DNA of 64,000 nt from Anaerolineae bacterium (GTDB lineage: Bacteria > Chloroflexota > Anaerolineae > CG2-30-64-16). The position numbers were made by a program, and so were the translations under genes. The stretch is from the NCBI GenBank assembly GCA_038214535.1, contig JBBQRS010000009.1, positions 4,176 through 68,175 of the forward strand, in the 5' to 3' direction. Positions 15,674 through 49,908 of this stretch are shown one piece after another. Below the pieces are notes generated by a model that was not told the origin of the DNA, did not search any database, and saw only the letters and a program-made list of their open reading frames with translations. The stretch's first letter is position 1. Each line of letters starts with the position of its first letter.

Positions 15674-15735
15674 TTTGTAGTGACGGCTTTAGCCGTTGCG
15701 TGCGCCAAAACGGCTGAAGCCGTCACTACGAAGGC
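15674..15735. repeat. Nested palindromic intergenic repeat, copy 1 (REP-like), acting as a bidirectional terminator between convergent genes.
   Basis: TTTGTAGTGACGGCTTTAGCCGTT, 12-nt spacer, AACGGCTGAAGCCGTCACTAC. Each arm contains an ACGGCT/AGCCGT mini-hairpin. In minus orientation it is followed by TTTTGG. A near-identical copy lies at 29946-30010. Confidence 0.7.
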
Positions 15736-17956: not shown

Positions 17957-19069
17957 ATGCGCGCCGAAGACCATTCGCCTCCGGCCCCCAAACAGCCGCC
18001 CCGTGCCAAACGCGGGCTATGGCTGCTTGCAGCGCTCCTCTTACTACTTCAGATGCCGGGATGCGCCGCGCCACGGCGCGCGATGCCCACGCAACCATCA
18101 TCGCAGATCACAGATACGGCCACCGCAACGGCCGCTGCACCGCGTGAAACCATAGCGCCCACGGTAACGGCAAGCCCCACCCTTGCGAAGACCGCCACCG
18201 CCACAGCGACCGCGGCAACTCCCGCAGACAAAATTATCATCCCCGAAACTTTGCGGGCGAAGATCGAGATTGTCTGGCCGCATGACGGCGCCACGGTGCG
18301 AGAAGCGACGCAGGCCAACCTCACCGCGTATCTCATGGGTGTTGACTCCTACAAGTCCCCACCGTGCGCCTGGGAGCCCACGGTGCGCCTGTGGATGGCG
18401 CTGAACGCCGAACCGGCTCGCCCCATCGCCGTGGCGGAGAAGCGCATGTTGGACACCGGCGGGCGGGATTTCCCCGTCTGGGATTTCAACGATATTGACG
18501 TCAGCGCCGCGCGCGACCCCTTCAACAAGCTCACATTTTACGTCACTGTGGATGATGTGGATACTTACCATAACATATGGGTCCACGCGCAGGACGCCCG
18601 CACCCTTCAAGCGCAACCCAACCAGCCAACCGAGTTGCTGTCACAACCGCCGCAGGAAGTGGACGCACGCATCAAGATCGTCTGGCCGCATGATGGCTTG
18701 TCGGTCGAACAGGCGGAACTGGCGAACATCACGGCGTCGCTGTTCAAAGCAGGCACGCTTTCGGCGATTTCAGGCGGAGCATCATGGAATCCCGCCGTTC
18801 GGCTCCATCGCTCGCTCAATGCGGACGCCGAATCGCCATCCGATCCGCCGATCACGGGTCAACGTCGCGCCATCCCAACCGAAACCGGCGCTGAGATGTG
18901 GGCCTGGGATTTCAACGATGTTGACGTGCGCGCCGCCCAGGACCGGTTGAACAAGCTCTACTTCTGGGTCAGCGTTGACGGCGTCGCGACGTTCCCAAAT
19001 ATCTGGACGCACGGCGCGGATACCCCCACCGTATTCCCGCAGGTAGACGTGCTGGAATCTTGCCGGTAG
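17957..19069 (+). CDS. Secreted protein made of two tandem copies (~130 aa each) of an unrecognised domain.
   Basis: Signal peptide (LWLLAALLLLLQMPGCAAP). Repeat 1 reads 'KIEIVWPHDG...WDFNDIDVSAARDPFNKLTFYVTVDDVDTYHNIWVH' and repeat 2 'KIVWPHDG...WDFNDVDVRAAQDRLNKLYFWVSVDGVATFPNIWTH'. Divergent from the two-component system. Confidence 0.7.
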   Translation: MRAEDHSPPAPKQPPRAKRGLWLLAALLLLLQMPGCAAPRRAMPTQPSSQITDTATATAAAPRETIAPTVTASPTLAKTATATATAATPADKIIIPETLRAKIEIVWPHDGATVREATQANLTAYLMGVDSYKSPPCAWEPTVRLWMALNAEPARPIAVAEKRMLDTGGRDFPVWDFNDIDVSAARDPFNKLTFYVTVDDVDTYHNIWVHAQDARTLQAQPNQPTELLSQPPQEVDARIKIVWPHDGLSVEQAELANITASLFKAGTLSAISGGASWNPAVRLHRSLNADAESPSDPPITGQRRAIPTETGAEMWAWDFNDVDVRAAQDRLNKLYFWVSVDGVATFPNIWTHGADTPTVFPQVDVLESCR

Positions 19070-19087: not shown

Positions 19088-21286
19088 CTATCTCCGCAAT
19101 TCCAGTGTGGGGTCACCCAATAAGTTAAAAGTCAGCAACACCTCGCGTACCCCCGCGGTCTGATCGGTAACGCTCGTCTGCGCCTGCAACACCGCGTCGC
19201 CCAGCCGGGCTGCGTTGTCCTGGCCGCCCGGCCTGATTGCCAGCGCGTCTGCCAGGGCCTGCGAAAGGGGTCTTTGATCCGCCAGCAACGCTGCGCCGGA
19301 GGGCACCAGCGCCGCGACTGCGCCGCCACCCGCGTGTCGCACCAGCGCCTCACCCAGCGATACGGTCGAGGGGTGTACGAAGAACCCGCTCAGGCACGTG
19401 ACCGTGAAAACGACGGGCAGGCGATCTCCATTCTTCAACGCCGGTACATCCTCGACTTTCAGGATGCCTTCCTGCGCCCAGAGCGTCACGCTGCCGTGGC
19501 CGGTGTAACCCATCAGCCCGACCCCGGCGTCGAACGCGCCCAACACAGCCGTGCGCGCCGCGCTTCCATCGCCCGTCACCGGCGCGACCTCGGCCTGAAA
19601 CCCCGTCAGCCTCGCCCCGAACGCCTGCGCCTCGACCAGGAAGTCGGGATCATCGTTATCGGCGGGCAAAATTGCCTGGCGTCGCCATCCGGCTGCTGCG
19701 TTGCCCTGCTCATAAGCGAGGGTCTTGGCGACCATCGCACGCACCTGTTCGGACGTCTGCGCCGGGAGCCGGCCCACCGCCATGACTGGTTTCAACGATG
19801 GGGCGGCGTCGCCTGCCTTCAAGGTGATGCCATCTCCCTCAAAAACGGTGGGCGGCAACGCGTACCATACGTCTGATGCGGTCCAACCCGTGTAGGTTGT
19901 GGCGATGAACTGGGCAGGGATGATATCCTTCTCGGCCCCAGCGAGATAGCCGGATGGATCGTAGGAGGCGTCGCCGACCAGAAGGAGATAGGCAGGGGCG
20001 GGCGCAGACCAATTTGCCCGCGCATATTGCACGAGGTCGCGGATTGCCGACGGGTCGGGCCGGCTGCGGCTGAACGCGTCATATACCGCCGCCGCATCCA
20101 GCACGGCCACGCGCAGACCAGCCTTCTCGCGCGCCGCGATGAGCGGCTGGAGCGCCTCGCGGAACTCGGGCGCAGTTACGACGATCACGTCTGCGCCGCC
20201 GGGCCACCCGGGCAGGCTGCCGGGTGCAACGCCCGCGATGGATGCGGGCTGGAGTAAGCCATCCTTGAGTGCAACCACGTAACGTCGCGCCGTCCCATCG
20301 GAGCCGAAGCGCAACGCGCCATCGGCAATCGCATATCCGGTCAGGGGTTGGGGCTGTGCGGGGTCGGTCACATCCCACACGGCGAGGTCATCGGGTTGCA
20401 ATCGCCCGGCGGTCAACGCGACGCGGAAGCCGGACGCCTGGCCACCAAATTCCAGCGGTGCAGCGCCGGCGACGAGCGGGCGCTGATAGGTCACTTCGGC
20501 CCAGTCCACCAGCACGGAATCGGCAGGCGCGCCCGTGTCGCCGGGCGCGGTGAGTTTGAGGCGATTTTCGCCGGGTTTCAGCAGGCCCGCGGGCAGCGGC
20601 AGCTCCACGAGGTGCGTGCCGCGGCCGTCCCACGTCGTTTCGCCCAGCGCGACGTCGTTCATCGTGAGGATGATCCGATGGTCGGGGTTGACCGGGGCCA
20701 TGGACTCGGCCCACAGGCGCAGCCGGAGCAGGCCTTCCGCGGGCAGCGGGTCAACTATTGCGAACGGGATTTCAAAATCGGCGGGCGCAAAGAGCGAGGT
20801 CCAGAACCAGCGGTCGCCGCCCGGCTCGGCATCGGGCAGGTAACGCTTTTGCTCCTCCGCGCGCACCGTGACCCAACCCGTATCGGTCAGATTGGCGTCC
20901 GCGGGCGGGGGGGCCGGTTGCGCTGCCGCTGACCCCTGACCGGCCGCCAGCCGGTACACATTGCGGTAAGATTGGCCCGGACGGCGATTCGCCCGGCCAT
21001 AGAAGCGCACGGCGGCTTGTTCGTCCTCTCCCACGCGTTCCAGGGCGACGGGGCGACCATCCACGCTCAGGGACAACCCGGCGGCATCTGTTACGGCCAA
21101 CCCTGTGTTGCGTAGGGCGTCGAGCGAGAGGGAATACAGGCCATCTTCTCCGATCACCAGTTTGACGGCGGCGATGGTCTGCGGCGCGGGCGGGGTCTGC
21201 GGGGTCTTCGACGTGCAGGCGGCGACCGCAAGCAAGAGCAGGAGCGGCAAAATCCACTTCCGCCGCAGGGCGCGTGGGGGCGTCAT
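19088..21286 (-). CDS. C25-family (gingipain-like) cysteine peptidase, paralog 1, secreted or lipoprotein.
   Basis: 'LMGYTGHGSVTLWAQ' (catalytic His region) and 'LPVVFTVTCLSGFF' (catalytic Cys region). Signal peptide LLLLLAVAACTS. Start trimmed to MTPPRALRRKW to avoid overlapping the upstream gene. Confidence 0.75.
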   Translation of the reverse strand: MTPPRALRRKWILPLLLLLAVAACTSKTPQTPPAPQTIAAVKLVIGEDGLYSLSLDALRNTGLAVTDAAGLSLSVDGRPVALERVGEDEQAAVRFYGRANRRPGQSYRNVYRLAAGQGSAAAQPAPPPADANLTDTGWVTVRAEEQKRYLPDAEPGGDRWFWTSLFAPADFEIPFAIVDPLPAEGLLRLRLWAESMAPVNPDHRIILTMNDVALGETTWDGRGTHLVELPLPAGLLKPGENRLKLTAPGDTGAPADSVLVDWAEVTYQRPLVAGAAPLEFGGQASGFRVALTAGRLQPDDLAVWDVTDPAQPQPLTGYAIADGALRFGSDGTARRYVVALKDGLLQPASIAGVAPGSLPGWPGGADVIVVTAPEFREALQPLIAAREKAGLRVAVLDAAAVYDAFSRSRPDPSAIRDLVQYARANWSAPAPAYLLLVGDASYDPSGYLAGAEKDIIPAQFIATTYTGWTASDVWYALPPTVFEGDGITLKAGDAAPSLKPVMAVGRLPAQTSEQVRAMVAKTLAYEQGNAAAGWRRQAILPADNDDPDFLVEAQAFGARLTGFQAEVAPVTGDGSAARTAVLGAFDAGVGLMGYTGHGSVTLWAQEGILKVEDVPALKNGDRLPVVFTVTCLSGFFVHPSTVSLGEALVRHAGGGAVAALVPSGAALLADQRPLSQALADALAIRPGGQDNAARLGDAVLQAQTSVTDQTAGVREVLLTFNLLGDPTLELRR

Positions 21287-21296
21287 GGCAGGTATC

Positions 21297-22283
21297 TCAG
21301 GGACGGCGCATGCGAAGCGCGGTCGCCGCGACCACACCGAGCGTTACGCCGACGGCCAGTGTCAGGGCGATCACCACCCCGATGGGCAGCCCCCCTTTGC
21401 TGCTTGCGTTCGTGTTCGCTATCGGGACCTGCGCATCGGTGGGCGTGTCCGCGGAAGCTTCGCTTCGCGCGGCAAATACTACCGGCGCAGGGGTCAGGGT
21501 CGGTGTTACGGTTGGGCGCGGCGTGTGCGACGGAGTTGCGGTCGGCGTTTCCGTGGGTAAGGGGGTGGGCGAAGGCGTCGGGATGGGCTGCGTTGCGGTC
21601 GCGGGCAATGGGATCGCTGCGAGGACCGGTTCGCCGGTCGGCCTGGTGACGACCCCCGGGCCGGGCTTCGGCGCCGGGACCGCGGGCACAACCGGCTGCT
21701 GAGGTTGCACCGGTGGAATGAGCGTCGCGGGCATCGGCGTCGGTGGTATGGGGGTGTTCGTATAGCGTCGCGTGGCGGTTGGCGGGTCGGTGCTGGTGGC
21801 TGTACCGGCAACATAGACCCAGCGGGTTGAAGTGGCGTTCGTCGTGCCGCCGGGATTCACGGGGCCATGCCACGACGAACCGCCCGCAGAGGTCAGCTCT
21901 TCCAGCCGGTAGTAGTAATTACGCCCTGCGATCAGCTCCGACGCGGGGTCTGTGTAGCTGTAGGTCGCGCCGGTGACGCTGTTGCCCTGCGCCTGTTGCG
22001 TGGCGACTACTTGCCCCACCATGTTCGGGCTTTCAGACCGATAGACGCGAAACGCCACCGTATCAATTTCGGTCGCGGTCTCCCACTCCACGAGGATGGA
22101 GCCGTCGCCCTGGCGTGTGGCCTTGAAGCTTTTGAGGGTGACCGACGCATCCACGCGATGCAGGGTTACCCCCGAGAGAAGCACCGTCACGGCCAGCAAC
22201 ATCACTGCCCAGACCCACATGACCGCGCGTCGCCCATTGTGAAAGTGTTTACGAGAATCCATATCCATCATCTTGCCTGCCAA
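21297..22283 (-). CDS. Membrane-anchored Fn3-like domain protein with a Pro/Thr-rich stalk and a C-terminal TM helix plus basic tail (P1).
   Basis: N-terminal TM/signal. Fn3-like 'ILVEWETATEIDTVAFRVYRSESP...YYYRLEELTSAGGSSWHGPV'. About 130-aa P/T-rich linker. C-terminus 'GLPIGVVIALTLAVGVTLGVVAATALRMRRP'. Start codon uncertain (TTG, or downstream ATGs). Confidence 0.65.
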   Translation of the reverse strand: MAGKMMDMDSRKHFHNGRRAVMWVWAVMLLAVTVLLSGVTLHRVDASVTLKSFKATRQGDGSILVEWETATEIDTVAFRVYRSESPNMVGQVVATQQAQGNSVTGATYSYTDPASELIAGRNYYYRLEELTSAGGSSWHGPVNPGGTTNATSTRWVYVAGTATSTDPPTATRRYTNTPIPPTPMPATLIPPVQPQQPVVPAVPAPKPGPGVVTRPTGEPVLAAIPLPATATQPIPTPSPTPLPTETPTATPSHTPRPTVTPTLTPAPVVFAARSEASADTPTDAQVPIANTNASSKGGLPIGVVIALTLAVGVTLGVVAATALRMRRP

Positions 22284-22335
22284 CCGCGCCGCTCCACATC
22301 ATCCTCAATACAATAAGAACCTGGCCGAAAACTCC

Positions 22336-22358
22336 GTAGTTTAGCCCCTCATGGGCGT
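22336..22358. repeat. Twenty-three-nt conserved intergenic motif, copy A (GTAGTTTAGCCCCTCATGGGCGT on the plus strand).
   Basis: Reverse complement ACGCCCATGAGGGGCTAAACTAC matches 36557-36578 (ACGCCCACGAGGGGCTAAACTAC) at 22 of 23 positions. Confidence 0.6.
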
Positions 22359-22406
22359 TGGCGACGGGTACAAGGCCCTAAGCTACGATTCGGATAGACA
22401 CAAACT

Positions 22407-24716
22407 TCAACGCAACACGTGCGGCAGATACGTCCATTCTTTGCCTGACGGCAATCGCATTGCCGGATCGCCATACAACGTCATGGTTGCCAGTACATAG
22501 TTATCCCCGTACTGGCGATAGAATTGCTCTTTCGCCAACTGAAGCGCCATGCCCAGCTCTGGCACATCGTTCCGGAACAGCTCGGTCATCACCAGCTTTC
22601 GGAGGTTCTGCTGATCGGGGGCCAGCCCCCGGCCGGTCGCCGAGATCGCCGCAATGGAACCCCCACCCTGTCGCAACAGCATGGTCTCCGCCATGCTGGG
22701 CGTCCCGGGATAGGCGAAGTACCCATCCAGACAGTTGAGCGTCATCACCACCGGCAGAGCACCGCCGTTTTGTAACCCTGCAACGTCTATTGTACGCCAG
22801 ATTTGCTCATGCGCCCAACTCGTGATCTCACCATGCCCGGTATAGTGGAGCATGAACGCCCCGCTCTGGATCGCGTTGGCGATGGCCTGACGCGCGGCGT
22901 CGGCGTTTGGGATGGCCGGGGTGTTCAGGTAAATCCGCTCGGCATACTGGTCGCGCGGGAGATCATCACGAATGATCTCATCGGATAGCGCCTGAAAGTT
23001 GCCGGCGTAATCGGGACCGTTGCTGTCGGTGTTGTCGGCCACAAATATCGAACGGCGCTGCCAGCGCGCCAGTCGCAGCGAATCGTCATAGGCAATGATC
23101 TTGCCGACCACCGTGTTGGCTTCGGCCAGCGTGTTTGCCGGGATGCGCCCGACGGCATATTCGGAGCGTCCGTCGCCGTTGGTGTCGCCGTACAGCGCAT
23201 CGGCGGGCGCCTCGCCCTGCCACGGGTCCACGAAAGCGAGATAAGGCGGCACGAGATTCGGCGCGGGCGGATACTTCGCCGGGTTGTACCCCTTGAAATT
23301 CCAGTGCCCATCTCCGAGCAACGTCAAGTACCTGGGCGACGCGCCTTCCCAGTGCGTTTGGGCCCAGGCCAGCATGGCCGGCACGGCGCGCGGGTGATAA
23401 ATCCCGTCATTGAATTCGTCCACCACATCGCGGAACAGCGCCACGATGGGACGACGGCCATGACTGATATGCCAGTTTGCCAGGGTTTGCGCCGCGGGCA
23501 ACAGACTTTCGTCGGTCACGATCACCACATCCGCGCCGCCGGCCGGCGCGCGTAGCGTCGTTGGGGGCCGCAGCCGCACCGACGCGGGCGCGTTCAGCGT
23601 CTCGACCGTTTGCAGCCAGGAGCGCGAGCTTGCGCCATCCTCGACGCGGAAGCGCGCCTGGAGGCCGCCCGCGCCGGGCTGGAACGCCGCGCCCGTCAAC
23701 CGGCGCGGCGATGCCGGCGTCGAGATGTCCCAGACCTCAACCTGATCGTTCGGCCAGCCCGAAGTCAGATATTCGTGCGTCCCCGGTGACTCGGCAGTGA
23801 AGCTCAGGCGGCCCGCATTGGCCCGGAAAAGCCGCCGATAATCCAGCTCTAGATAGTTGACATAAACATCATCCACGACCAGATTCGCCGGGACGAGCGC
23901 GCTCACCGCCGCCGTGTTCGCGCCTGCGGCCAGCAGCCCGCCCGGTACGTTGGTCTGGAAGACCCTACGCACTTTGCCGTCCCAGCTTTCATCGAGCAGC
24001 GGCGCGCCGTTAAGAGTGATCGTCGTGCGATGATCGGGGGCGTAGTTGTTGTTATAGCCGCGCGCAACCACTTCCACGCGCAGGGTCGCCGCGGCGCTGG
24101 GCGCAGGGTCGGGGACAAAGAGGCTCAGGTTGGCGGTCGCCGGGGCCGTGACGGCGGTCAGTCGCGCCCAGAACCATGTATCTTGCGTATCCAGCTTGAG
24201 CGTGTCCAGCGACCACCACTCCAGCGATTCTTCGGCGTGCAGGGTGTCGGGGAAATCGGCCGGCGGGGTGAGGTTGCCCTGCGGCGCGGCGGCAATGTCA
24301 AGGACGCGCGGCCCAGGCGCGCCGCCCATGTCCAGCCAGTAAACGCGTTCATCGGTATATTTTTGCTGCATCTCCGGGCCGCGAAAACGTTGGCCGTAGA
24401 AGATCAGCCGGTCATCGGGATCGAAGCGGCCATCGGCCTCGCCCGTGACGCGCACGGCCACCGGTTGCCCCATGCTGCTCAGCGCGAACGTCAGCGGGTT
24501 GACGGAAGCTGGGTCAATGCCTGCGGCGGCCAAGTCTTGCGGGCGTAGGACGGTGAGGCCGTCCGTGGTCACGCCGATGCGGAGGCGTGTGGTTCCATCC
24601 GGTTGGGCGAGGTTTGGTTGGGCATGGCCGGTTGGGGCAGGAAGGAGGGCGGCGAGGACGGCGACAAGAACGAACGCGCGGATCAGGCGCAATGTAAATT
24701 GGCGGGTTTGATTCAT
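22407..24716 (-). CDS. C25-family (gingipain-like) cysteine peptidase, paralog 2, secreted.
   Basis: 'MLHYTGHGEITSWAHEQ' and 'LPVVMTLNCLDGYF'. Signal peptide. Overall collinear with paralog 1. Confidence 0.75.
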   Translation of the reverse strand: MNQTRQFTLRLIRAFVLVAVLAALLPAPTGHAQPNLAQPDGTTRLRIGVTTDGLTVLRPQDLAAAGIDPASVNPLTFALSSMGQPVAVRVTGEADGRFDPDDRLIFYGQRFRGPEMQQKYTDERVYWLDMGGAPGPRVLDIAAAPQGNLTPPADFPDTLHAEESLEWWSLDTLKLDTQDTWFWARLTAVTAPATANLSLFVPDPAPSAAATLRVEVVARGYNNNYAPDHRTTITLNGAPLLDESWDGKVRRVFQTNVPGGLLAAGANTAAVSALVPANLVVDDVYVNYLELDYRRLFRANAGRLSFTAESPGTHEYLTSGWPNDQVEVWDISTPASPRRLTGAAFQPGAGGLQARFRVEDGASSRSWLQTVETLNAPASVRLRPPTTLRAPAGGADVVIVTDESLLPAAQTLANWHISHGRRPIVALFRDVVDEFNDGIYHPRAVPAMLAWAQTHWEGASPRYLTLLGDGHWNFKGYNPAKYPPAPNLVPPYLAFVDPWQGEAPADALYGDTNGDGRSEYAVGRIPANTLAEANTVVGKIIAYDDSLRLARWQRRSIFVADNTDSNGPDYAGNFQALSDEIIRDDLPRDQYAERIYLNTPAIPNADAARQAIANAIQSGAFMLHYTGHGEITSWAHEQIWRTIDVAGLQNGGALPVVMTLNCLDGYFAYPGTPSMAETMLLRQGGGSIAAISATGRGLAPDQQNLRKLVMTELFRNDVPELGMALQLAKEQFYRQYGDNYVLATMTLYGDPAMRLPSGKEWTYLPHVLR

Positions 24717-24728
24717 AGAGGAAACATT

Positions 24729-25352
24729 TTACCGCGTGGAGGTCTTGTATGCAAAGATGCCCTGTCGTATCGCCCCAACCAGCGTGTCAAATGGGGGCTG
24801 GGTCATCTTGCGGCCCCTCTGACTCAGCGACTCAAACAGCGTCTTGCGCAGGCCATAGCTGATTTCGAGCTGGCAGCCCTGCCCGGTCGCGCCCCGATTG
24901 CAGATGTTGTCCGGCTCCTGTCCTGCGAGGTCGCGGTTGATGGTTCCGCGAGTGGTGAAACCCGCGGCCATCAGGGCGTCCATCATGTGGCGACTCAGTT
25001 CAACATTGCGCCCACCCAGATAGATGACCGGTTCTTCACCCGCGCAACCGTGGAGGGCCAACACAACACGGTGTTTTGCAACAAGTTCCCGGCATGACGG
25101 TTCGTCAAATCGCGTGCTGGTGATGTGCAGCATTTCGTTACGACGCAATTTCACGCCCTCGAAGCAGTAGAACGAATACGATTCCCCTGCGACCGCCCGG
25201 GCGATCTCACCGGTTCCCGGTTCGATGCCGCCGGCATGGGGCGCAACGATGATGACCGGCGCAAGACGTTCACGATCCGTGATGCGATAGTCCTGGCCAA
25301 CGACTTCAACGGACGCTAAATCGGCGAAGCGCGCGTAACGGTCACGAGGCAT
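24729..25352 (-). CDS. Poly-gamma-glutamate hydrolase (PghP/YjqB, PF05908-like) family protein.
   Basis: 'IIVAPHAGGIEPGTGEIA' and 'LALHGCAGEEPVIYLGGRN' resemble the PghP zinc-site motifs. About 200 aa. Confidence 0.55.
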   Translation of the reverse strand: MPRDRYARFADLASVEVVGQDYRITDRERLAPVIIVAPHAGGIEPGTGEIARAVAGESYSFYCFEGVKLRRNEMLHITSTRFDEPSCRELVAKHRVVLALHGCAGEEPVIYLGGRNVELSRHMMDALMAAGFTTRGTINRDLAGQEPDNICNRGATGQGCQLEISYGLRKTLFESLSQRGRKMTQPPFDTLVGAIRQGIFAYKTSTR

Positions 25353-25776
25353 TGGCGTTTGCGGCGCGCTGCTGACCCCCGCGCACCCATAGGAAGATCA
25401 CGAATCCGGCCAGCCCGCCCAGAATCAGCGCGTGCCGCCAATCGAACGCGGAAGTTCGGCTTGCCACCGGCCCGTGCAGGTTGACTGCCCCGGATTTCTC
25501 GATCTCCTGGAGCTGATAGTAATACGTCACGCCGGGCCGCGCGGTCGTATCCTCGAAGGTGTATTCCCCGCCGACCAGTGGATCGCTCGCCGGGGGGATG
25601 AGTTGCGGGTTGACCTTCACGTCGAACGGCCCATCCGGCGATTCGCCCCGATACAGGTTGAAGCCCGCCGTGTTGATCTCGCTCTCGGTGCTCCATTCCA
25701 CCCGCACCGATGAAGTGCAGCCGGCGAGCAGCAGGGCCAGGAGGAGCCACATGACAGGGCGCGGCGCGCGTGACAT
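25342..25776 (-). CDS. Lipoprotein with an Fn3-like domain and a C-terminal TM helix, paralog of P1 (P2).
   Basis: Start set at MSRAPRPVMWLLLALLLAGC (lipobox LAGC). 'VEWSTESEINTAGFNLYRGESP...YYYQLQEIEKSGAVNLHGPV'. C-terminal 'ALILGGLAGFVIFLWVRGG'. Confidence 0.6.
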   Translation of the reverse strand: MSRAPRPVMWLLLALLLAGCTSSVRVEWSTESEINTAGFNLYRGESPDGPFDVKVNPQLIPPASDPLVGGEYTFEDTTARPGVTYYYQLQEIEKSGAVNLHGPVASRTSAFDWRHALILGGLAGFVIFLWVRGGQQRAANANAS

Positions 25777-25787
25777 AGAGCGCAAGC

Positions 25788-27635
25788 CTATTCTACGCCC
25801 GTCGGGCATTCGAACAGGTGATCCGTGTCGAGCCAGCCCTGCCAGCGACAGCGGCCCGAGCTGAGATAGATGGGCCACGGCGGTACACCGGCCTGCTTCC
25901 GCACGGTCAGCGCGTAGGGCAAGGGTTGCACCGTGCGCGGCAGCCGGTAATCGAGCCGAACAACGTGGCTGTCGCCGGGGCGCAGCACGAAGACACCGGC
26001 GATCACCGTGGTGTCGGCTTCGCCGGTCTCGACCAGTACGCGCTCCAGCCCGTCCGTCGCCGTCACCTCGGCCCCCGGGGGCACGTACACGCGCAGATAA
26101 TCCCAGAAGCAGCGCCGCACCATTTCGTTATAGGAATCCCCATAGCGCGGCGTCCGGTCGCACGCCTGGTCGGGCGGCAGGGGCTGCGCTCCGTGGGTAT
26201 AGGTGATCAGCAGCGTCGCATTCAACAACCCTTCATTATTGCTCACCCGATAATCAATCATGTTTCGGATGGCCGCGCTGGTCTTGTTGAAGCTCAGGTT
26301 GCTGTCAACCACCGCCAGATAGTCCTGGCCGGGGACGGGGCGCATCGCGCCGTCCCAGCCCTGCTCGGCCAACAGCGTCGAGATCGTGGGATCGTCCACG
26401 AAGATCTGCAAATGACGCCCGTTCAGCATCGTAATCAAGGCTTTCGCCAACGCCGTTGGGTTCAAATCCGCGCCGCTTTGCAGCCGGGTCAGCGCCGTCG
26501 ATACCAGGTCGCCCATGAAGTCTTTGCGCTTGAACCACCAGTCTCCCGTGGCAGAGGAAGCCACCGTTTCGGTGCTGTCGGCGGGGCGTTCCCAGGCGCG
26601 TTTCATGTTATCCACGAGGTTGTCGGCGGTTACCGGCCCCTCGATGCCGGGTACATCCAGCGGCCCCAGCGCTTCCACCAACAGGCGCACGGCTTCCATA
26701 TCGAGCGCGATGACGCCATCGGTGTAGACGTCCTGGTCCTGGGCGTAAAGGGAACGCGCAACTTCGGCGCTGGTGGGGAAATCCGGCGACCAGTTGCTAT
26801 CGCGCAGCAGCAGCATTTGCGCGCCCATCCACTCGCTCAACGGCAGCGGCGGCGACGGATGCGGCTTCGACAGGTCGTCTGCCGCATAGCTGTCCGCCAT
26901 CTTGAGGTCGGTCAGCCGTCCGCCTTCGAAGCGCGCAACCCCCGCGCCGCTGATGAAGCCGCCGGTGGGGCGCATTTCATCGTTGTTCTGCGCCAGAATC
27001 AGGTAAGAGCGAGGTTCATCCACGCCCAGCAGCACAGGCGCAATCTGTGCGGCCTGCAATCCCACCCGCGCTAGGGGCAAGATGCGGTCTACCTGTGCCA
27101 TCTGGCCCTGGAAGCGCCCCGGCAGCGGTTGGGTGATGGATGCCCGGGCGGCCTCCGCGCGCGCGATGTGTTCTTCGGCGGCGGCCAACTCGGGTTGCGC
27201 GGCCTGCAACGCAGCGACCACTTGCCCCAACCCGTCGCCCGCGCCGTGCTCGCGCAGGCCCACGAGCGCAGGCCGCAATGCCGTCAGGGCTTGATTCCCG
27301 CCGGTTGCGGTTTCCACCGCCATATCCAGCAGCGCCGGGGCCGACCCTGCCAGCGGGCCGACTTTGGGCAACCAGCCAAATGCGGGGGCGAGAGGCATGA
27401 AGGGCCCGACGGCGCTGCGCACGGCTTTAAGGTGCGTCTCCAGGGCCGCCATCTCCGGGGCGACGGCGTCGAGCGCCGCCATGTCGGGGTTATCGGCCGC
27501 GGCCTGGATGCGATCCAATGCAGCCAGAGCCTTGCGCGTTTCTGTGGCCGCGCGGATCGCGCTGAACCCCACCCAGATCACCAGCAGCAGCAGGGCGACG
27601 CCGGCAACCATCAGGATGCGTCGTTTGTTGGTCAT
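25788..27635 (-). CDS. DUF4012 domain membrane-anchored protein.
   Basis: N-terminal TM helix followed by a ~580-aa extracytoplasmic domain containing 'ILAQNNDEMRPTGGFISGAGV', reminiscent of DUF4012. Four-nt overlap with the next gene. Confidence 0.55.
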   Translation of the reverse strand: MTNKRRILMVAGVALLLLVIWVGFSAIRAATETRKALAALDRIQAAADNPDMAALDAVAPEMAALETHLKAVRSAVGPFMPLAPAFGWLPKVGPLAGSAPALLDMAVETATGGNQALTALRPALVGLREHGAGDGLGQVVAALQAAQPELAAAEEHIARAEAARASITQPLPGRFQGQMAQVDRILPLARVGLQAAQIAPVLLGVDEPRSYLILAQNNDEMRPTGGFISGAGVARFEGGRLTDLKMADSYAADDLSKPHPSPPLPLSEWMGAQMLLLRDSNWSPDFPTSAEVARSLYAQDQDVYTDGVIALDMEAVRLLVEALGPLDVPGIEGPVTADNLVDNMKRAWERPADSTETVASSATGDWWFKRKDFMGDLVSTALTRLQSGADLNPTALAKALITMLNGRHLQIFVDDPTISTLLAEQGWDGAMRPVPGQDYLAVVDSNLSFNKTSAAIRNMIDYRVSNNEGLLNATLLITYTHGAQPLPPDQACDRTPRYGDSYNEMVRRCFWDYLRVYVPPGAEVTATDGLERVLVETGEADTTVIAGVFVLRPGDSHVVRLDYRLPRTVQPLPYALTVRKQAGVPPWPIYLSSGRCRWQGWLDTDHLFECPTGVE

Positions 27636-29188
27636 TGTGGTGTCATCTTTACGAGTGCTCCGACCGGCTCCTCAATCAGATCCGGCGCGTTGATGTCAAT
27701 CGGGCCGGCGCGATAGACCGGCAGGCGGTTCGCTACATCTGCGACGAAAGCGTCCACATCCGGCGCATCTAAGCCGACGGGCGGCAATACTCCGGGATGG
27801 TGGCTTGCCAGGGTGCGCCGATACCAGGGGAAAGCATACAGCCGGACGTTGACCGGCGTCAAGTCGGGGCGGCGCTGCAAGCCGTAGATGCCGTACCACA
27901 GCGCGAACGTGCGCGCATCTTCCTCAACGAGAATCACGGCGTCCGGCGCGGCCTCGGAGAGCGCGGCGTCGAGAAAGGCTTGCGCACGCATATCGCTGCG
28001 TGCGTCCATCGTCGCGCCGTGCCGCAATACAGAGGCGACCGGCAGGCTCAACAGGAACAGACCGAGCAGGATGCCCGACAGGGTGCGCCCCAACGGGATC
28101 GGCTGTTTACCGTCCGGCGTTCCCGCCGCGAGTTCGGCCAGCCAGTTCAGCCCTTCCGCCAGCCAGAAGGCAATCGCCGTCCACGCGGGGATGAGATACA
28201 GGTACGCGTCCGCCGTGTCGTAACCGATCGCGTAGATGCTGTAGGCGACCACGATGAGCAGGGTGAAACGCTGCCAGAGATGTTCGCGCCGGTCGAGCCG
28301 CCACAGGCCGAGCAACGCAATCAGCGCTCCCCACGGCCCCCCGCCGAACTGCCAGACGAGCTCGCTGCCCCAGGCCGCCACCCGACCGGGAAGCGCGCTC
28401 AGGCTGACGCCGAACATCAGCGGCCGGTAAATCTGCCCGGCGACCACTTGCCAGAACCGGAGTGGTGTGCTCGGGTCGCCCCAGTTCACCGGCGGGTCGG
28501 CGGCCGCGGCAAGGGGCAGATAGAGATAGACGGTCAACCCCAGCGCGGCTGCGGCCGCGGCGCTAAGCCATTCCCGTCTGTGGTCGGCTTGCTTCCGCCG
28601 GGTGTGCCACAGCCAATCGGCAGCCGCGGGGAGCATGAGGAGGGTCGTCAGGTGATTGCCCAGGCTCAGGCCAAATATCAGCCCTGTCGCCGCGGACGAC
28701 CCACGCCACGCGCCGCGCCCCCAGGACCACAGCAACGTCATCAGCGCGACGACCAGCAGGAAGTTCAGCCCGTGTACCTCGGTGATGACGGCCTGGCTCC
28801 ACAGCGCCGGCGATGCGGCCAGACAGAGTGCGGCAGAGAGCGCCACGGGGCCGCGCCAGACCGTCCCGGCCAACACTCGATAGGCGAGCGCCGCGAACAG
28901 ACTGACGCCCAGGGCCGCGCAACCGGCGGAGAGCCAGTTCCCCCAGCGCGCCGTCTCACCGGGCAACCAAGTGATCGCCCGCAATAATATCGCGTAGGTG
29001 GGATATCCGGAGGGATGCGGCACGCCCCTGACGAGCGCGGCTGCAAGGAAGTCGCCACCGTCGGAGCCATGATGCGCCCACGTCAGCCCGGGCGCGAGGG
29101 TTGCCGCATATAGAAGCAAAGCGACCGGCCCTGCAATCAGGGCCGGCCAAATGCCCCGAAGGGCGGAGCGAATCGAGTCGGCGGTCAT
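27632..29188 (-). CDS. DUF2723 (TMEM260-like, GT-C fold) putative protein O-mannosyl/glycosyltransferase.
   Basis: 'LAPGLTWAHHGSDGGDFLAAALVRGVPHPSGYPTY' N-terminal signature of DUF2723. Ten or more TM helices. Confidence 0.7.
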   Translation of the reverse strand: MTADSIRSALRGIWPALIAGPVALLLYAATLAPGLTWAHHGSDGGDFLAAALVRGVPHPSGYPTYAILLRAITWLPGETARWGNWLSAGCAALGVSLFAALAYRVLAGTVWRGPVALSAALCLAASPALWSQAVITEVHGLNFLLVVALMTLLWSWGRGAWRGSSAATGLIFGLSLGNHLTTLLMLPAAADWLWHTRRKQADHRREWLSAAAAAALGLTVYLYLPLAAAADPPVNWGDPSTPLRFWQVVAGQIYRPLMFGVSLSALPGRVAAWGSELVWQFGGGPWGALIALLGLWRLDRREHLWQRFTLLIVVAYSIYAIGYDTADAYLYLIPAWTAIAFWLAEGLNWLAELAAGTPDGKQPIPLGRTLSGILLGLFLLSLPVASVLRHGATMDARSDMRAQAFLDAALSEAAPDAVILVEEDARTFALWYGIYGLQRRPDLTPVNVRLYAFPWYRRTLASHHPGVLPPVGLDAPDVDAFVADVANRLPVYRAGPIDINAPDLIEEPVGALVKMTPQ

Positions 29189-29203
29189 ACTCTGAGGCAG
29201 ACC

Positions 29204-29890
29204 CTAACGGGGTCTGCCCGGATCGGCCCACGCGCCGCCCACCGGCGGCAGTTCCACCGGCGGCCAGATCAGGATCGCCTGCGCCACGGCCACGCTGCCG
29301 CCCGCCGCCGTTGCCTTTGCCACGTTCGTCAGTTCAGGCCCTGAGCCCGGAACCGGCCCTGCCAGTGCTGAGAAGCGAATCGTGTATTCGCCACCCGGCG
29401 GCAGCACGGCCACCTGCGCGCGGAGGGTGCGGCCATCCCATGCCGCGTCGCGACCTTCCAGCACCACGCCCGGCTCCAACCCCGGCGGCAGGGTATCTTC
29501 GAGCGAGATGCCCTGCAACGAGGTCGCGCCCTGGTTGCTGAGCGTCAGGGTGAAACCCACGGTCTCCCCCGGCCAAATCTGCCGGTGGTCGGCCCGTTTC
29601 TGAAGCACGAGTTGCGCGCCTTGCGCAGGCGCGATCGGGACGATGGGGGCGACGGTTGCGCCCGGCGCGACGGTCACACCCGGCGCGGGGGTTGCGCCCG
29701 GTGCCGGCGGCTGCCCGGGATCGGGCTTATCGGGGTCGGGCCGCTCCGGCGGCTCTGGAGGCTTGGGCGGTACAGTCTGGTTCGCCGGGCTTTGACCTGG
29801 TGTGGCCCATACGACCGGGCCGGACAGCGCCACGCCGACCAGCGCGACGGCCACCAACCCATAAATGATCCATTTCTTACTTCGTCCCAT
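29204..29890 (-). CDS. Membrane-anchored DUF11 (conserved repeat domain) surface protein with a Pro-rich stalk.
   Basis: N-terminal TM, 'PPKPPEPPERPDPDKPDPGQPP' linker, and 'GETVGFTLTLSNQGATSLQGISLEDTLPPGL' DUF11-type repeat. Confidence 0.6.
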   Translation of the reverse strand: MGRSKKWIIYGLVAVALVGVALSGPVVWATPGQSPANQTVPPKPPEPPERPDPDKPDPGQPPAPGATPAPGVTVAPGATVAPIVPIAPAQGAQLVLQKRADHRQIWPGETVGFTLTLSNQGATSLQGISLEDTLPPGLEPGVVLEGRDAAWDGRTLRAQVAVLPPGGEYTIRFSALAGPVPGSGPELTNVAKATAAGGSVAVAQAILIWPPVELPPVGGAWADPGRPR

Positions 29891-29945
29891 CGGATCCTCC
29901 CAGGCCGGAAAGGCATGACGTGCTCCGGCGGGTAGTTACACACCA

Positions 29946-30010
29946 CTTTGTAGTGACGGCTTCAGCCGTTGTCGTGCCCCCCCAAAACGGCTGAAGCCGT
30001 CACTACAAAG
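29946..30010. repeat. Nested palindromic intergenic repeat, copy 2, with perfect 24-bp arms.
   Basis: CTTTGTAGTGACGGCTTCAGCCGT, 16-nt spacer, ACGGCTGAAGCCGTCACTACAAAG. Lies between the stop of the flippase-like gene and the start of the DUF11 gene. In minus orientation the inner hairpin is followed by TTTTGGGGGGG. Confidence 0.75.
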
Positions 30011-30044
30011 GAGAGCGACGCACAGTTTTTGGATAGATTCTAAG

Positions 30045-31082
30045 TTATGGTTGCGTATCGAGCGTCCCCGGCAAGTCTGCCGTCGCCTCGCGGAGACGGC
30101 GGAGGTTCAGGCTGCGCGCCCACAGCGCAAGGGCTGCCCAGACGCCAATCGTTCCAAAAGCAATCGCATAGAGCACGACGCCGTAACTGAAGCTCGCCGC
30201 TTCGGGCACGCCGAAAACGGACAGCGCCGCCACACAGAGATACTGAAAAACGCCGATCTTGCCCGGCGTCGAAGGGATCGCCACGCCCCCCTGCAAGACG
30301 ACCAGCAGGAACACCGCGATCAGAAACGACGGCGGCAGCCCAAACGCCAACAACAGGAACCAGTTCGTGAGCGCCGACAGCAGCCAAGCGATCACCGTCC
30401 AGCCCCAGATCGCCGGCGCCGGTCTGCCCGCGCTGAGCACCGCTAATCCATCCATGAGCGACCGCAAACGGCCTTCCCAGCGCACCGCGAGGGTGGGAGA
30501 GAGCCGGTTCAACGCCCGCTGCATCAGCGCCAGCCACAATCGCCGGCCCGCCAGGAACACCGCAATCGCCAGCCCCACGGCGACGGCCATCACCAGCACC
30601 GGCGTCGTCCGCAGGGTGAACCGCTCGGGCAGCGCGACCAGCGGAACCAGCGCCGCGACCAGCACGGCCAGCATCACCAGATCGAGCAGCTTCTCGGCGG
30701 CAATCGTCCCAAAGACGTAGGATTTGTTAATGCCGGTTTCTTCGCCGCCCAGATATGTGCGGGCAAGCTCGCCGAAACGCCCCGGTACGATCAAATTGAC
30801 CGCCTGGCCGATCACCAGGGGGCCGCTCAACGCCAGGGTGCTCGCTTCAACCTGTTTCGGATAGAACAGCCAGCGCCAGCGCACGGTCTTTGCCAGCGGC
30901 GTCAACACGGTCGCCCCGACGGCCAGAAGCACGTAGAGCGGTTGAATCGTGCCGAGAACGGCCCATACCTGCCGCAAGTCAGTGTTGCGCGCCGCCAGCG
31001 CAAGCACCATCAGGCCCAGCGCCAGCCCAATCCAGGTGCGGATGCCGAACAGAGGACCCCGGCGCGCCCCCGCAGACGCCAT
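30045..31082 (-). CDS. Flippase-like UPF0104 / LPG_synthase_TM-domain membrane protein.
   Basis: Eight TM helices. 'WRWLFYPKQVEASTLALSGPLVIGQAVNLIVPGRFGELAR' is typical of PF03706. Confidence 0.65.
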   Translation of the reverse strand: MASAGARRGPLFGIRTWIGLALGLMVLALAARNTDLRQVWAVLGTIQPLYVLLAVGATVLTPLAKTVRWRWLFYPKQVEASTLALSGPLVIGQAVNLIVPGRFGELARTYLGGEETGINKSYVFGTIAAEKLLDLVMLAVLVAALVPLVALPERFTLRTTPVLVMAVAVGLAIAVFLAGRRLWLALMQRALNRLSPTLAVRWEGRLRSLMDGLAVLSAGRPAPAIWGWTVIAWLLSALTNWFLLLAFGLPPSFLIAVFLLVVLQGGVAIPSTPGKIGVFQYLCVAALSVFGVPEAASFSYGVVLYAIAFGTIGVWAALALWARSLNLRRLREATADLPGTLDTQP

Positions 31083-31097
31083 CAGGTTCAGTTGAAC

Positions 31098-31910
31098 CTA
31101 TTGCGCCGGAACCGGGCGGGCGATGACCACGAGACGATGTGTATTGTTCCACGGCGGCCAGCAGGTGATGATCGTCACCCGCTCGTCATCCGTCGGATTC
31201 ATGAAACGCGCGTTCGCCATCCGTTGTTCGGCGGACACACCCGTATCGCGCAGCCGATAGAACTCCTCGATCTGATAATCTACTTCCTGGCCGTCCGCGC
31301 CGAAAAGTTGCACAGTGCGACCATTCAAGACGTCGGAGCGATCCGTGAATTTGTCCACGGCGACCCGCGTGTCGTTGTTCCACGACTTGCTGATGGACTC
31401 GAACACCTTGCTGTAGATGTTGTTGTGGCCGGAGATCACTAGGTTGCCCTGCTCACCCAGCGACGCGCTGTTGATGTGATGGCCGGCCTCGATCTTCGGG
31501 ATCACCCATTCCGAAACCGGACCGTTGGCCGTATCCACCACGCGCCAACTCATCGGGATCACTGGCGTATCAATCTTCAGGTCGGGGATGACCAGCCGCA
31601 CGGGGGGCTGAAGAACCACCGGCGCGGACGTTGCGGTCGGCTCGACCGTCGGTTCTACCGGCTCAGCCGTGGCCGTAGGCGCTTCCGCGAGGGCGGCCTC
31701 TGTAGGCACGGGTGAAGGTTCGGGCGCGACCGTCGAGGTCGGGGGCGGCGTGCGCGAAGGCACGACGACCACTGCGGTGGGATCGCTGGCGGCTTGCGCG
31801 GCAGCCGCGTCGGGCGGCGTCCCGGTCTGGCAGCCGGCGATCAGCAGCGCGCTGACCAGCATCGCAGCCGCCCATTGAGTGATACGAAGATTGACGTGAG
31901 AACGCAACAT
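31098..31910 (-). CDS. Sortase-family transpeptidase (class E/F-like), membrane anchored.
   Basis: N-terminal TM plus Pro/Ala linker. 'GNLVISGHNN' (His), 'RVTIITCWP' (Cys) and downstream 'RLVVIARP' (Arg). Confidence 0.75.
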   Translation of the reverse strand: MLRSHVNLRITQWAAAMLVSALLIAGCQTGTPPDAAAAQAASDPTAVVVVPSRTPPPTSTVAPEPSPVPTEAALAEAPTATAEPVEPTVEPTATSAPVVLQPPVRLVIPDLKIDTPVIPMSWRVVDTANGPVSEWVIPKIEAGHHINSASLGEQGNLVISGHNNIYSKVFESISKSWNNDTRVAVDKFTDRSDVLNGRTVQLFGADGQEVDYQIEEFYRLRDTGVSAEQRMANARFMNPTDDERVTIITCWPPWNNTHRLVVIARPVPAQ

Positions 31911-32025: not shown

Positions 32026-32054
32026 TTGACATCGAACACCCGTTCTGATATGAT
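32026..32054 (+). promoter_or_regulatory. Consensus sigma70 promoter of lexA: TTGACA, 17-nt spacer, TATGAT.
   Basis: TTGACA at 32026-32031 and TATGAT at 32049-32054. A LexA box lies in the spacer. Confidence 0.6.
32034..32045. promoter_or_regulatory. LexA (Cheo-type) box 1: GAACACCCGTTC, inside the lexA promoter spacer.
   Basis: GAAC-N4-GTTC palindrome of the Gram-positive-type SOS box class. Confidence 0.55.
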
Positions 32055-32061
32055 GCATTCA

Positions 32062-32073
32062 GAACATTCGTTC
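32062..32073. promoter_or_regulatory. LexA (Cheo-type) box 2: GAACATTCGTTC, just downstream of the -10 element.
   Basis: Second GAAC-N4-GTTC palindrome, 8 nt after the -10 hexamer. Confidence 0.55.
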
Positions 32074-32112
32074 GCGACGCCGACGACACATACCTGCGTC
32101 GAGGAGATCAAG

Positions 32113-32829
32113 ATGGCATTTACCCGCATGACACAAATTAGCGAGCAACTGACCGAAATCGAGGCGCGCGTCCTGTGCTACCTCGAACAGACTCTGCGGC
32201 CCGGTTTCTGCCCCAGCCGTGAGGAACTCAGCCGCGCCGCCGGGCTGGGCAGCCGCGGCTACCACATCAATCAGGTCTTGAAAAGCCTGGATGAGAAGGA
32301 ATTCATCGAGCTGACGCCGGGCCGGTCGCGTTCGATCGCCCTGTTGCGCCGCGCCGATGGCCGACCCTTCAGCTTCAACACCATTTGGGCGCCGGTGGCG
32401 GGCATCATCGGGGCGAGCTGGCCCCGCGACACCGCGACCGAGGATGACAATGTCTTCGCCGATGAGGCCGTGGAGTTGACCCGCAGCCTGGTCGGCGGGC
32501 ACGAAGATGTCGTCACGCTGCGCGTATCGGGCGACTCCATGATCGAGGCCGCCATCAACGACGGCGATCTGGTGGTGATCTCTCCATCGGATGAGATTCG
32601 CAACGGCGATCTGGTGGCGGCGAACGTCAAAGGCGTGGGCCGCACGTTGAAATACTTCTATCGGCATAACGACAACGTGGAGTTGCGCCCGGCGAATGCG
32701 AAGATGAAGCTGGATCCGATGATCTATCATCCGAACCTGGTGCGCATCGAGGGCAAGGTACTGCTCGTCATTCGCCAGGTCACGGCTCCGGCAGATGGCC
32801 GGGCATCGCTGAATCTGATCGCCGCGTGA
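32113..32829 (+). CDS. lexA: LexA repressor (wHTH plus S24 peptidase domain).
   Basis: N-terminal wHTH collinear with E. coli LexA. 'VSGDSM' catalytic Ser and a downstream Lys (TLKYF). Start at MAFTRM. Confidence 0.9.
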   Translation: MAFTRMTQISEQLTEIEARVLCYLEQTLRPGFCPSREELSRAAGLGSRGYHINQVLKSLDEKEFIELTPGRSRSIALLRRADGRPFSFNTIWAPVAGIIGASWPRDTATEDDNVFADEAVELTRSLVGGHEDVVTLRVSGDSMIEAAINDGDLVVISPSDEIRNGDLVAANVKGVGRTLKYFYRHNDNVELRPANAKMKLDPMIYHPNLVRIEGKVLLVIRQVTAPADGRASLNLIAA

Positions 32830-32868
32830 GCGCCGCTCCTCCAGGAGCGCCATCCTTCCTGCCGGAGT

Positions 32869-49829: not shown

Positions 49830-49857
49830 CGCGATCTGCATAATCTGTCGCCCGGCC

Positions 49858-49886: not shown

Positions 49887-49908
49887 CACATCTTAGAGAG
49901 GCGATTTC

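Follow-up and report, generated by a model that had tools for sequence, protein, structure and literature searches.

Why should a sortase, a membrane glycosyltransferase and a pair of C25 peptidases be encoded in a single row, and do their genes make up one system? This question is raised by positions 19088 to 31910 of a 64-kb window (the whole 64,000-nucleotide stretch analyzed here, with a G+C content of ~64%) from an Anaerolineae bacterium of the phylum Chloroflexota. An earlier note had described ten consecutive co-directional genes on the minus strand, running from 31910 down to 19088, and the open reading frames (ORFs) with their translations and independent gene calls on an identical 16-kb Logan contig (L001) agree on both this operon-like arrangement and the gene order (Table 1). 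Our analysis shows that the locus is a composite of two separable modules and not one indivisible ten-gene system. Module A comprises the genes for the sortase, a flippase-like membrane protein, a CLIPPER/DUF11 protein, a TMEM260-like GT-C glycosyltransferase, a DUF4012 protein, and P2, a protein with a fibronectin type III (Fn3)-like domain. Module B comprises the genes for the two C25 peptidases (C25a and C25b) and for P1, a second Fn3-like protein encoded between them, together with the convergent gene Conv, which lies just outside the locus as first delimited. From gene content, domains, catalytic residues, motifs, topology signals and synteny, we infer the enzymatic steps, acceptor and substrates proposed below. 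The reading that we tentatively favor, with slightly less than even confidence, is that of a supra-operon that serves the production and decoration of surface proteins and whose two modules are often but not always linked, and a role in surface protein anchoring and maturation appears plausible on these sequence grounds.

The evidence for two modules came from synteny comparisons of the window proteins with two sets of loci, 43 chosen with C25a as the anchor and 80 with DUF4012. All relatives found were metagenome-assembled genomes (MAGs) of Chloroflexota labelled Anaerolineae, Anaerolineales or Caldilineales, including a few MFD-series MAGs labelled "Chloroflexia", and the closest relative locus (L017/L029) encodes a C25a that is 88% identical to that of the window. 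Modules A and B are each conserved separately in Anaerolineae and Caldilineales MAGs. Module B, in the order C25a-P1-C25b with a convergent Conv, was present in essentially all loci reaching far enough, at 45 to 88% identity, and the module A order sortase-(flippase)-DUF11-GT-C-DUF4012-P2 was kept in at least 14 independent loci. Adjacency of the two modules in the window order was observed in about one third to one half of the informative loci. Counted from the C25a side, 18 distinct genome loci extended the full 10 kb upstream, and 6 of them carried module A. Counted from the DUF4012 side, for close orthologues with 5 kb or more of downstream sequence, C25a followed in five loci and was absent in four, and a sixth, shorter locus (L073) was also linked. 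The linked loci include L002, L010, L014, L017, L029, L004/L027 and L018 in the C25a-anchored set and L047, L049, L067, L071, L073 and L078 in the DUF4012-anchored set. The earlier note had proposed conservation of the gene neighborhood as a check, and synteny does extend to relatives, where it takes the form of two separable modules, with the gene for a PghP-like hydrolase that lies between P2 and C25a in the window present in none of them.

This pattern could also arise if unrelated systems share an "envelope island," in which a Pgf/PMT-like sortase system with a glycosylated CLIPPER substrate lies next to an independent C25a-P1-C25b-Conv protease complex and their adjacency is inherited and not functional. 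The modules do lie apart in many loci (on the C25 side, for example, in L009, L012, L022, L026, L036, L037 and L041), L125 and L126 have module B by itself, with unrelated genes beside it, and the junction between the modules is an insertion hotspot that holds a ScmC/PqqD/peptide cassette in most relatives and the PghP-like gene in the window. However, chance adjacency is disfavored because gene order and orientation are identical in lineages with only ~50% protein identity and because the kinship of P2 with P1 bridges the modules. It is further disfavored by two loci in which P1 and the convergent Conv come directly after DUF4012 or P2 with no C25 genes between them (L048:1949-5331 and L087:1-3191), by C25 genes that recur beside flippase-GT2-GT-C-DUF4012 genes in the distant loci L089 and L095 (DUF4012 37 to 40% identical; GT2, family 2 glycosyltransferase), and by the existence of C25-CLIPPER fusions. 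Such fusions include one L095 polypeptide with Propeptide_C25, C25 and two DUF11 domains and the C25a orthologues P0006 and P0012, which consist of C25, CLIPPER_2 and an Ig-like domain. With these findings on the two sides, we consider inherited adjacency of unrelated systems to be somewhat unlikely.

Both C25 proteins matched Pfam Peptidase_C25 strongly (5e-75 and 253 bits for C25a; 3.3e-73 and 247 bits for C25b), and they are paralogues with ~31% identity. C25a residues H628 and C662 were invariant in 31 sequences, and the catalytic His and Cys of C25b (GHG and TC) were kept in 29 of 29 orthologues. C25a has a signal peptide without a lipobox and ends in the tail TYLPHVLR, which resembles a motif known as the YLP-box; C25b is a predicted lipoprotein (LAVAAC) without a C-terminal tail. 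This division holds in relatives, with a lipobox in 27 of 29 C25b orthologues versus none of 46 C25a orthologues. A C25 family profile found PorU of the Porphyromonas gingivalis type IX secretion system (T9SS; 6za2) at 1.5e-38 versus the gingipain RgpB (gingipain R) at 1.4e-21, and both locus proteins matched the NCBIfam PorU model NF033707 (248 bits for C25a and 214 bits for C25b) below its equivalog cutoff of 420. C25a residues 84 to 759 aligned to positions 63 to 736 of the 1,095 positions in this model, and the model was unmatched beyond position ~736.

By these profile comparisons, C25a and C25b appear nearer to PorU than to gingipains. PorU, the best solved relative, shares the C25 domain with its His/Cys dyad and an N-terminal beta-rich region that aligns. 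In contrast to PorU, the locus C25 proteins score below the model cutoff, lack the C-terminal third that includes the T9SS C-terminal domain, occur as two paralogues of which one is a lipoprotein, and have an Fn3/transmembrane (TM) partner. No T9SS families turned up in profile scans of proteins from the 64-kb window and from loci of up to 22 kb, and a T9SS is not known from the host phylum. A function of the C25 enzymes as PorU-like transpeptidases, to which the earlier note had pointed, is not supported by this analysis.

Gingipains are the best-characterized C25 members and are degradative proteases. The locus proteins could likewise degrade protein as gingipains do, to nourish an Anaerolineae bacterium that lives by protein fermentation, with P1 and Conv serving only as tethers to the surface, and the intact catalytic His and Cys, along with a lipobox and a stalked partner, would suit a cell-bound protease. 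We consider such a nutritional role improbable, as the family profile is far closer to PorU than to gingipain, the match to the PorU model reaches the N-terminal domains, a strict two-paralogue set with distinct anchoring exceeds the needs of a nutritional protease, and C25a bears a sorting-type tail. Under the supra-operon reading, C25a and C25b, catalytically intact by sequence, would act at the surface, with C25b held on the membrane as a lipoprotein and secreted C25a kept in place by one of two means, its own YLP-box tail or the Fn3 domain of P1, a stalked and tail-anchored protein. The pair would then perform site-specific C-terminal processing, and possibly transpeptidation, of surface proteins and not bulk proteolysis.

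The C25a tail belongs to a broader pattern. About half of C25a orthologues terminate in [YF]LPx[VILTA]x[RKH], in some cases preceded by a Pro/Thr linker, and across all loci we observed this motif at 25 extreme ORF C termini versus 0.3 expected from its internal frequency. The tail type corresponds to the NCBIfam "YLP-box putative sorting motif" (models NF050076 and NF053834), whose descriptions name no cognate sorting enzyme. Several tails scored 13 to 17 bits against cutoffs of 15 and 10 (the latter for NF053834), and orthologue-type C25a tails scored 13 to 15 bits. The YLP-box is also terminal on unrelated secreted proteins, including Vgb-like and SBBP beta-propellers, a glycosylhydrolase-like protein and proteins of no recognized type (L080:112-1479, L089:15985-18081, L090:3960-5540, L091:1185-3725, L095:13559-15232, L015:4724-6220 and L020:1741-2928). 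In L080, L089, L090, L091 and L095, the YLP-box proteins adjoin distant flippase-GT2-GT-C-DUF4012 loci.

P1 and P2 matched no family in Pfam or NCBIfam. An AlphaFold2 (AF2) model of P1 contained a confident seven-strand sandwich whose best structural matches are Fn3 domains, in agreement with the assignment in the earlier note. In P1, a signal peptide and this N-terminal Fn3-like domain are followed by a Pro/Thr-rich stalk of ~170 residues with short conserved motifs (PTATR[QR][FY]TNTP, TPxVF and GRNT) and by a C-terminal TM helix with a basic tail. P2 has a lipobox, which is present in 26 of 32 orthologues, an Fn3-like domain, and a C-terminal TM helix with a conserved tail ending in W[VRW]RGGR. 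With 31 to 36% identity between the two, P2 is, as judged by sequence, a paralogue of the P1 domain, and P2 orthologues (52 to 90% identity) always come after DUF4012. In L007 and L014, a small P1 paralogue located before P1 has a YLP-box in place of the stalk and TM helix, which suggests that the stalk/TM end and the YLP-box end are alternative retention devices. Conv is secreted or lipoprotein-like and consists of a Thr/Ala-rich linker and a tandem pair of beta-sandwich domains with the invariant motifs IVWPH, WDFND and WxHxxDxRT; its family comprises 310 unannotated proteins, and its structure model contained two confident beta-sandwiches with generic structural matches only. Conv may be a surface beta-sandwich partner or substrate.

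Module B also varies in copy number (L026, L034, L038, L007 and L014), with two tandem C25a paralogues in some loci and an extra small Fn3 protein in others. A C-terminal extension of some C25a orthologues (...NYFYVVQAAN...) was considered as a fused P1-type Fn3 domain and rejected after hhalign found no relationship.

At the opposite end of the locus, the sortase domain matched Pfam Sortase (PF04203) at 1.1e-17 and 64.4 bits relative to a gathering score of 26.6, and the nearest PDB entries were the sortases 5go6 and 5go5 (1e-8). The motifs ISGHNN, TIITCWP and NTHRLVV align with the GH, TC and HR of 5go6, placing the catalytic His, Cys and Arg, and these motifs are kept in L002 and L029. The N terminus is of the lipobox type (LLIAGC) and is followed by an Ala/Pro/Thr-rich linker before the catalytic domain. 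Because scores against the NCBIfam class E (NF033747; 36.3 bits, cutoff 160) and class F (NF033748; 30.2 bits, cutoff 166) models are far below the cutoffs, the protein appears to lie outside every curated class and to represent an unclassified subfamily. It matched 1,020 cluster representatives (E<=1e-10), nearly all of which are 220 to 310 residues long. A sortase::flippase fusion in L002 was considered as Rosetta-stone evidence and rejected, as the same assembly is frameshifted elsewhere (its C25b is split). No such fusion was present among the 150 best sortase representatives, the long ones being multi-sortase or sortase plus LGFP proteins, and the L002 fusion is probably an assembly artifact.

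The candidate substrate of this sortase is the DUF11 protein, which matched Pfam DUF11 (PF01345; 2.3e-8, 34.8 bits versus 24.6) and NCBIfam TIGR01451. It has a cleavable-looking signal peptide (VWA followed by TP), a Pro-rich N-terminal stretch, and a single CLIPPER domain, an isopeptide-type domain typical of covalently stabilized surface stalks (PMC12617251). In the window, the protein ends in ELPPVG plus 11 residues without a membrane anchor, and more than 20 orthologues terminate in LPPAELPx[TV]G followed by 3 to 35 hydrophilic residues, a tail that likely constitutes an "ultrashort" sortase signal. The order sortase-(flippase)-DUF11 occurs in at least 14 independent loci, and due to this gene pairing the DUF11 protein is likely the dedicated substrate of the adjacent sortase. 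The lipoprotein-type sortase would cleave the secreted CLIPPER/DUF11 protein at its C-terminal LPx[TV]G, a signal that is unusual in having no membrane anchor after it, and would then link the protein to an envelope acceptor. The actinobacterial class E or housekeeping sortases (5go5/5go6), which act on LPXTG or LAXTG substrates, offer the nearest comparison. The locus shares with them the sortase fold with its His, Cys (TxxTC) and Arg, an adjacent LPx[TV]G substrate, and a CLIPPER (CnaA-like) domain typical of sortase-anchored adhesins and pilins (PMC12617251), but differs in its class scores (30 to 36 versus 160 to 166), its lipobox-type N terminus and the ultrashort substrate signal.

Three further module A proteins point to glycosylation. 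The flippase-like protein matched Pfam LPG_synthase_TM (1.4e-42) and NCBIfam TIGR00374 (1.3e-21) and has ~7 hydrophobic segments, and its gene adjoins the GT-C and DUF4012 genes even in distant loci. The GT-C protein matched PF11028 (TMEM260-like, formerly DUF2723; 4.7e-18, 66 bits versus 24.2), which replaces the accession PF10034 given previously; the domain assignments themselves (sortase, UPF0104, DUF11, DUF2723, DUF4012, PghP-like and both C25) were each confirmed by hidden Markov model (HMM) searches. Its best PDB match is human TMEM260 (9rql; 1.5e-15, aligned over residues 27 to 470), with which it shares the GT-C fold. The alignment to 9rql retains equivalents of D52, H67 and D441, residues that are essential in the human enzyme, with D441 as the catalytic base (bioRxiv preprint 10.64898/2026.03.17.711096). 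TMEM260 is a protein-specific O-mannosyltransferase for Ig-like IPT domains (PMC10214176). The DUF4012 protein (Pfam 4.3e-32, 112 bits versus 28) has one N-terminal membrane anchor and a large extracytoplasmic part, and no relative of it was found in the PDB.

The order flippase-like-(GT2)-GT-C-DUF4012 persists where DUF4012 is only 26 to 42% identical, and only in distant relatives is the GT2 gene part of the operon, where it separates the flippase-like and GT-C genes. In the window, the three-component set is split, with the GT-C and flippase-like genes in the operon and an ArnC/PgfS-like polyprenyl-phosphate GT2 with two C-terminal TM helices ~5 kb off, beside a second flippase-like gene that is directly upstream of it (the pair lies ~4.7 kb upstream of the locus). 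The GT2 in the operon of distant loci and the GT2/flippase-like pair in the window suggest an outer-face membrane glycosylation route that uses a polyprenyl-phosphate sugar, in which this pair could account for donor synthesis. In such an extracytoplasmic route, which would require the polyprenyl-phosphate sugar, the flippase-like protein would act with the TMEM260-like GT-C, the GT2 would supply the sugar donor, and the DUF4012 protein would be a membrane-anchored partner. The route would serve one of two ends, either O-glycosylation of the Pro/Thr-rich or beta-sandwich proteins encoded in the locus or assembly of the glycan acceptor.

Bacterial three-component routes of GT2, flippase and GT-C include GtrABC, ArnC/ArnT and Pgf of Streptococcus mutans. 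The locus resembles these routes in that ArnC/PgfS-like GT2 and flippase-like proteins are encoded nearby, or in the operon in distant relatives, and it resembles the Pgf system in having the gene for a sortase substrate with a Cna-type domain as a neighbor. In contrast to these routes, the flippase candidate of the locus is of the UPF0104/MprF type and not the GtrA type, and DUF4012 has no counterpart in them.

The same genes might serve a glycan and not a protein. In that case, the flippase-GT-C-DUF4012 core would make or modify an exopolysaccharide (EPS), sheath or cell wall glycan, and the sortase, DUF11 and C25 proteins would be accessory and mechanistically unconnected. A Bifidobacterium EPS cluster has been noted to contain DUF4012, and the family is common to Gram-positives and Chloroflexi (PMC6744442). 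Conservation of the trio together with GT2 also reaches much farther than that of the sortase and C25 genes. However, the closest characterized relative of the GT-C is a protein O-mannosyltransferase whose essential residues are kept, the locus encodes many secreted proteins of the Pro/Thr-rich and beta-sandwich kinds, and YLP-box proteins lie beside the five distant trios listed above. We regard a glycan-only function of this core as very unlikely.

The DUF11 tail and the YLP-box have a common LPx[TV/I] core, and both are without a membrane anchor. Speculatively, one enzyme family might read both tags. A bolder proposal, to which we assign only a small probability, is a T9SS-independent sorting pathway in which anchor-less tags with the LPx[TV/I] core (the YLP-box and the DUF11 tail) would be cleaved by the C25 pair, the sortase or both, with the cargo attached covalently to a glycolipid or glycan made by the flippase-GT2-GT-C-DUF4012 set. 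If true, such a pathway would be a monoderm analogue of PorU/A-LPS (A-lipopolysaccharide) attachment or of glycosylphosphatidylinositol (GPI)-type transamidation.

The earlier note had likened the locus to a pathway for cleavage and attachment of surface proteins. The two C-terminal sorting-type motifs and the greater proximity of the C25 proteins to PorU fit this proposal, and the part that did not hold is that all ten genes act as one indivisible system. Several findings weigh against reading the locus as a supra-operon for surface proteins. With respect to linkage, 12 of 18 genome loci had no module A in the 10 kb upstream of C25a, C25 genes were not found in the 5 kb or more downstream of module A in L045, L066, L077 and L083, a variable insert (the RiPP-like cassette described below or PghP) separates the modules, and all relatives are MAGs. 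The sole sortase::flippase fusion comes from an assembly with other frameshifts. With respect to the sorting signals, the DUF11 tail has no C-terminal hydrophobic window and so lacks the TM helix and charged tail of canonical signals, and the C25a tail of the window, TYLPHVLR, fits the regular expression and has no match to the YLP-box HMMs. A correlation between the YLP tail on C25a and linkage to module A was sought and not found, and none stands behind a common reader of the two tags. Finally, the GT-C is without the luminal TPR acceptor-binding domain that sets TMEM260 apart from it (GT-C ends at residue 518, and the alignment ends at 487 of the 729-residue 9rql chain), and the C25 enzymes can be read as plain proteases.

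The earlier note had not recognized the architecture as a described system. Literature searches returned nothing about C25/PorU-like proteins of Chloroflexota, the YLP-box, or the gene combination of the locus; the NCBI models "YLP-box putative sorting motif" and "putative T9SS sortase PorU2" do cover part of it. The parts are of known kinds, namely a sortase with an LPXTG substrate, GT-C glycosylation, a PorU-like C25 peptidase and a curated YLP-box, the last shared by about half of C25a orthologues and the unrelated secreted proteins. We found no published description of the C25a-P1-C25b-Conv module, of an anchor-less LPx[TV]G on a CLIPPER protein, or of their recurrent linkage to flippase-GT-C-DUF4012. 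Database clusters of the ten window sequences carried no source annotation name, apart from one truncated JGI member of the sortase cluster labelled "sortase A."

The Chloroflexota envelope is poorly understood, and surface protein retention is largely unexplained. To these questions the locus brings a candidate sortase subfamily with an anchor-less substrate signal, a candidate PorU-like pair outside a type IX context, a candidate bacterial TMEM260-like GT-C with intact catalytic residues, and a possible link to a YLP-box tag that has no published enzyme. If these links are true, a bacterial class that is abundant and for the most part uncultured would have a new way of anchoring proteins, and the locus would offer new ligases or peptidases with short recognition tags.

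The junction between the modules has a history of its own. In most relatives, a cassette resembling those for ribosomally synthesized and posttranslationally modified peptides (RiPPs) lies between P2 and C25a, or beside module B where module A is absent. Its products are a ScmC-like HprK-type kinase, a PqqD-like chaperone, a 42- to 51-residue peptide with the consensus ...RKPYExPAVVYExxLEVRAGxxLGxxDPLDLxGxxK, and a secreted protein of ~240 residues (L002:9025-9932, L004:2950-5375, L010:6471-8827, L014:6641-8941 and L003:3464-6968). A literature search on ScmC returned only unrelated acronyms. The cassette is not in the window, whose clade lost it, and its exact site is occupied there by the PghP-like gene (Pfam Gamma_PGA_hydro, 3.2e-61 and 206.6 bits versus 22). 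This gene had no tblastn match in ~120 related loci, including L017, L029 and L073 (88% identical), where P2 abuts C25a, and its G+C content of 0.60, with 0.69 at third codon positions (GC3) versus 0.76 to 0.82 in its neighbors, differs from its surroundings. By these sequence features it is a recent lineage-specific insertion. PghP as a functional member of the conserved system was rejected, as the gene is absent from all relatives. Its product has no signal peptide or hydrophobic segment and is cytoplasmic as predicted; the claim that every product of the locus is membrane-anchored or secreted thus fails for this one.

Table 1. Features of the locus and its surroundings, with positions in the 64-kb window
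Feature	Position	Strand	Basis
Sortase	31098-31910	-	Pfam Sortase
Flippase-like polytopic membrane protein	30045-31082	-	Pfam LPG_synthase_TM / UPF0104
Palindrome, REP-like	29943-30013	no strand	Folding energy and second copy
CLIPPER/DUF11 protein	29204-29890	-	Pfam DUF11
TMEM260-like GT-C	27632-29188	-	Pfam PF11028
DUF4012 protein	25788-27635	-	Pfam DUF4012 (PF13196)
P2, lipobox and Fn3-like domain	25342-25776	-	Identity to P1 domain
PghP-like protein	24729-25352	-	Pfam Gamma_PGA_hydro (PF05908)
C25a	22407-24716	-	Pfam Peptidase_C25 (PF01364)
P1, Fn3 domain, stalk and TM helix	21297-22220	-	AF2 model
C25b	19088-21286	-	Pfam Peptidase_C25 (PF01364)
Conv, convergent beta-sandwich gene, just outside the locus as first delimited	17957-19069	+	
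Second LPG_synthase_TM paralogue (37550-38557) and ArnC/PgfS-like GT2 (about 36592-37560)	36592-38557	-	Pfam 2e-41; NCBIfam ArnC-type 1e-67, PgfS 5e-50

With refined starts, the successive gaps from the sortase gene to C25b are 15, 154, 15, -4, 11, -11, 12, 186 and 10 nucleotides. Seven junctions are as tight as previously described (overlaps or gaps of 15 nucleotides or less), and the two exceptions are the 154-nucleotide flippase-DUF11 gap and the C25a-P1 gap, which measures 123 to 186 nucleotides depending on the choice of start codon. The flippase-DUF11 gap holds a near-perfect palindrome with arms of ~25 nucleotides (CTTTGTAGTGACGGCTTCAGCCGTT ... AACGGCTGAAGCCGTCACTACAAAG) and a minimum free energy of -57 kcal/mol (z -6.8). 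The palindrome had been listed as part of the locus, and it is present there; a second copy at 15675-15735, intergenic like the first, shows that it is not locus specific. It had no Rfam match, no T-tract terminator was called over its span, and it looks like a dispersed element of the repetitive extragenic palindromic (REP) type. Counts of internal promoters, terminators and RNA elements in the locus were no higher than in shuffled controls, with no Rfam match.

Genes on the plus strand flank the locus on both sides, with Conv at one end and a LexA-like gene starting at 32026 at the other. The LexA-like (Peptidase_S24) gene and an FtsK/SpoIIIE-like gene (32026-33960) are divergent from the sortase gene, and the pair is kept in L002 (L002:272-1808). 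Farther away, positions 47193-51357 include a gene for an 878-residue protein in which a nucleotidyl-transferase (NTP_transferase plus hexapeptide repeats) is fused to a phosphoglucomutase/phosphomannomutase, and the next ORF, 49909-51357, resembles by eye a further gene of the phosphoglucomutase/phosphomannomutase type; both could contribute to sugar-nucleotide supply. A polytopic membrane protein of 502 residues without a Pfam match, encoded at 4590-6098, might be another GT-C-like protein.

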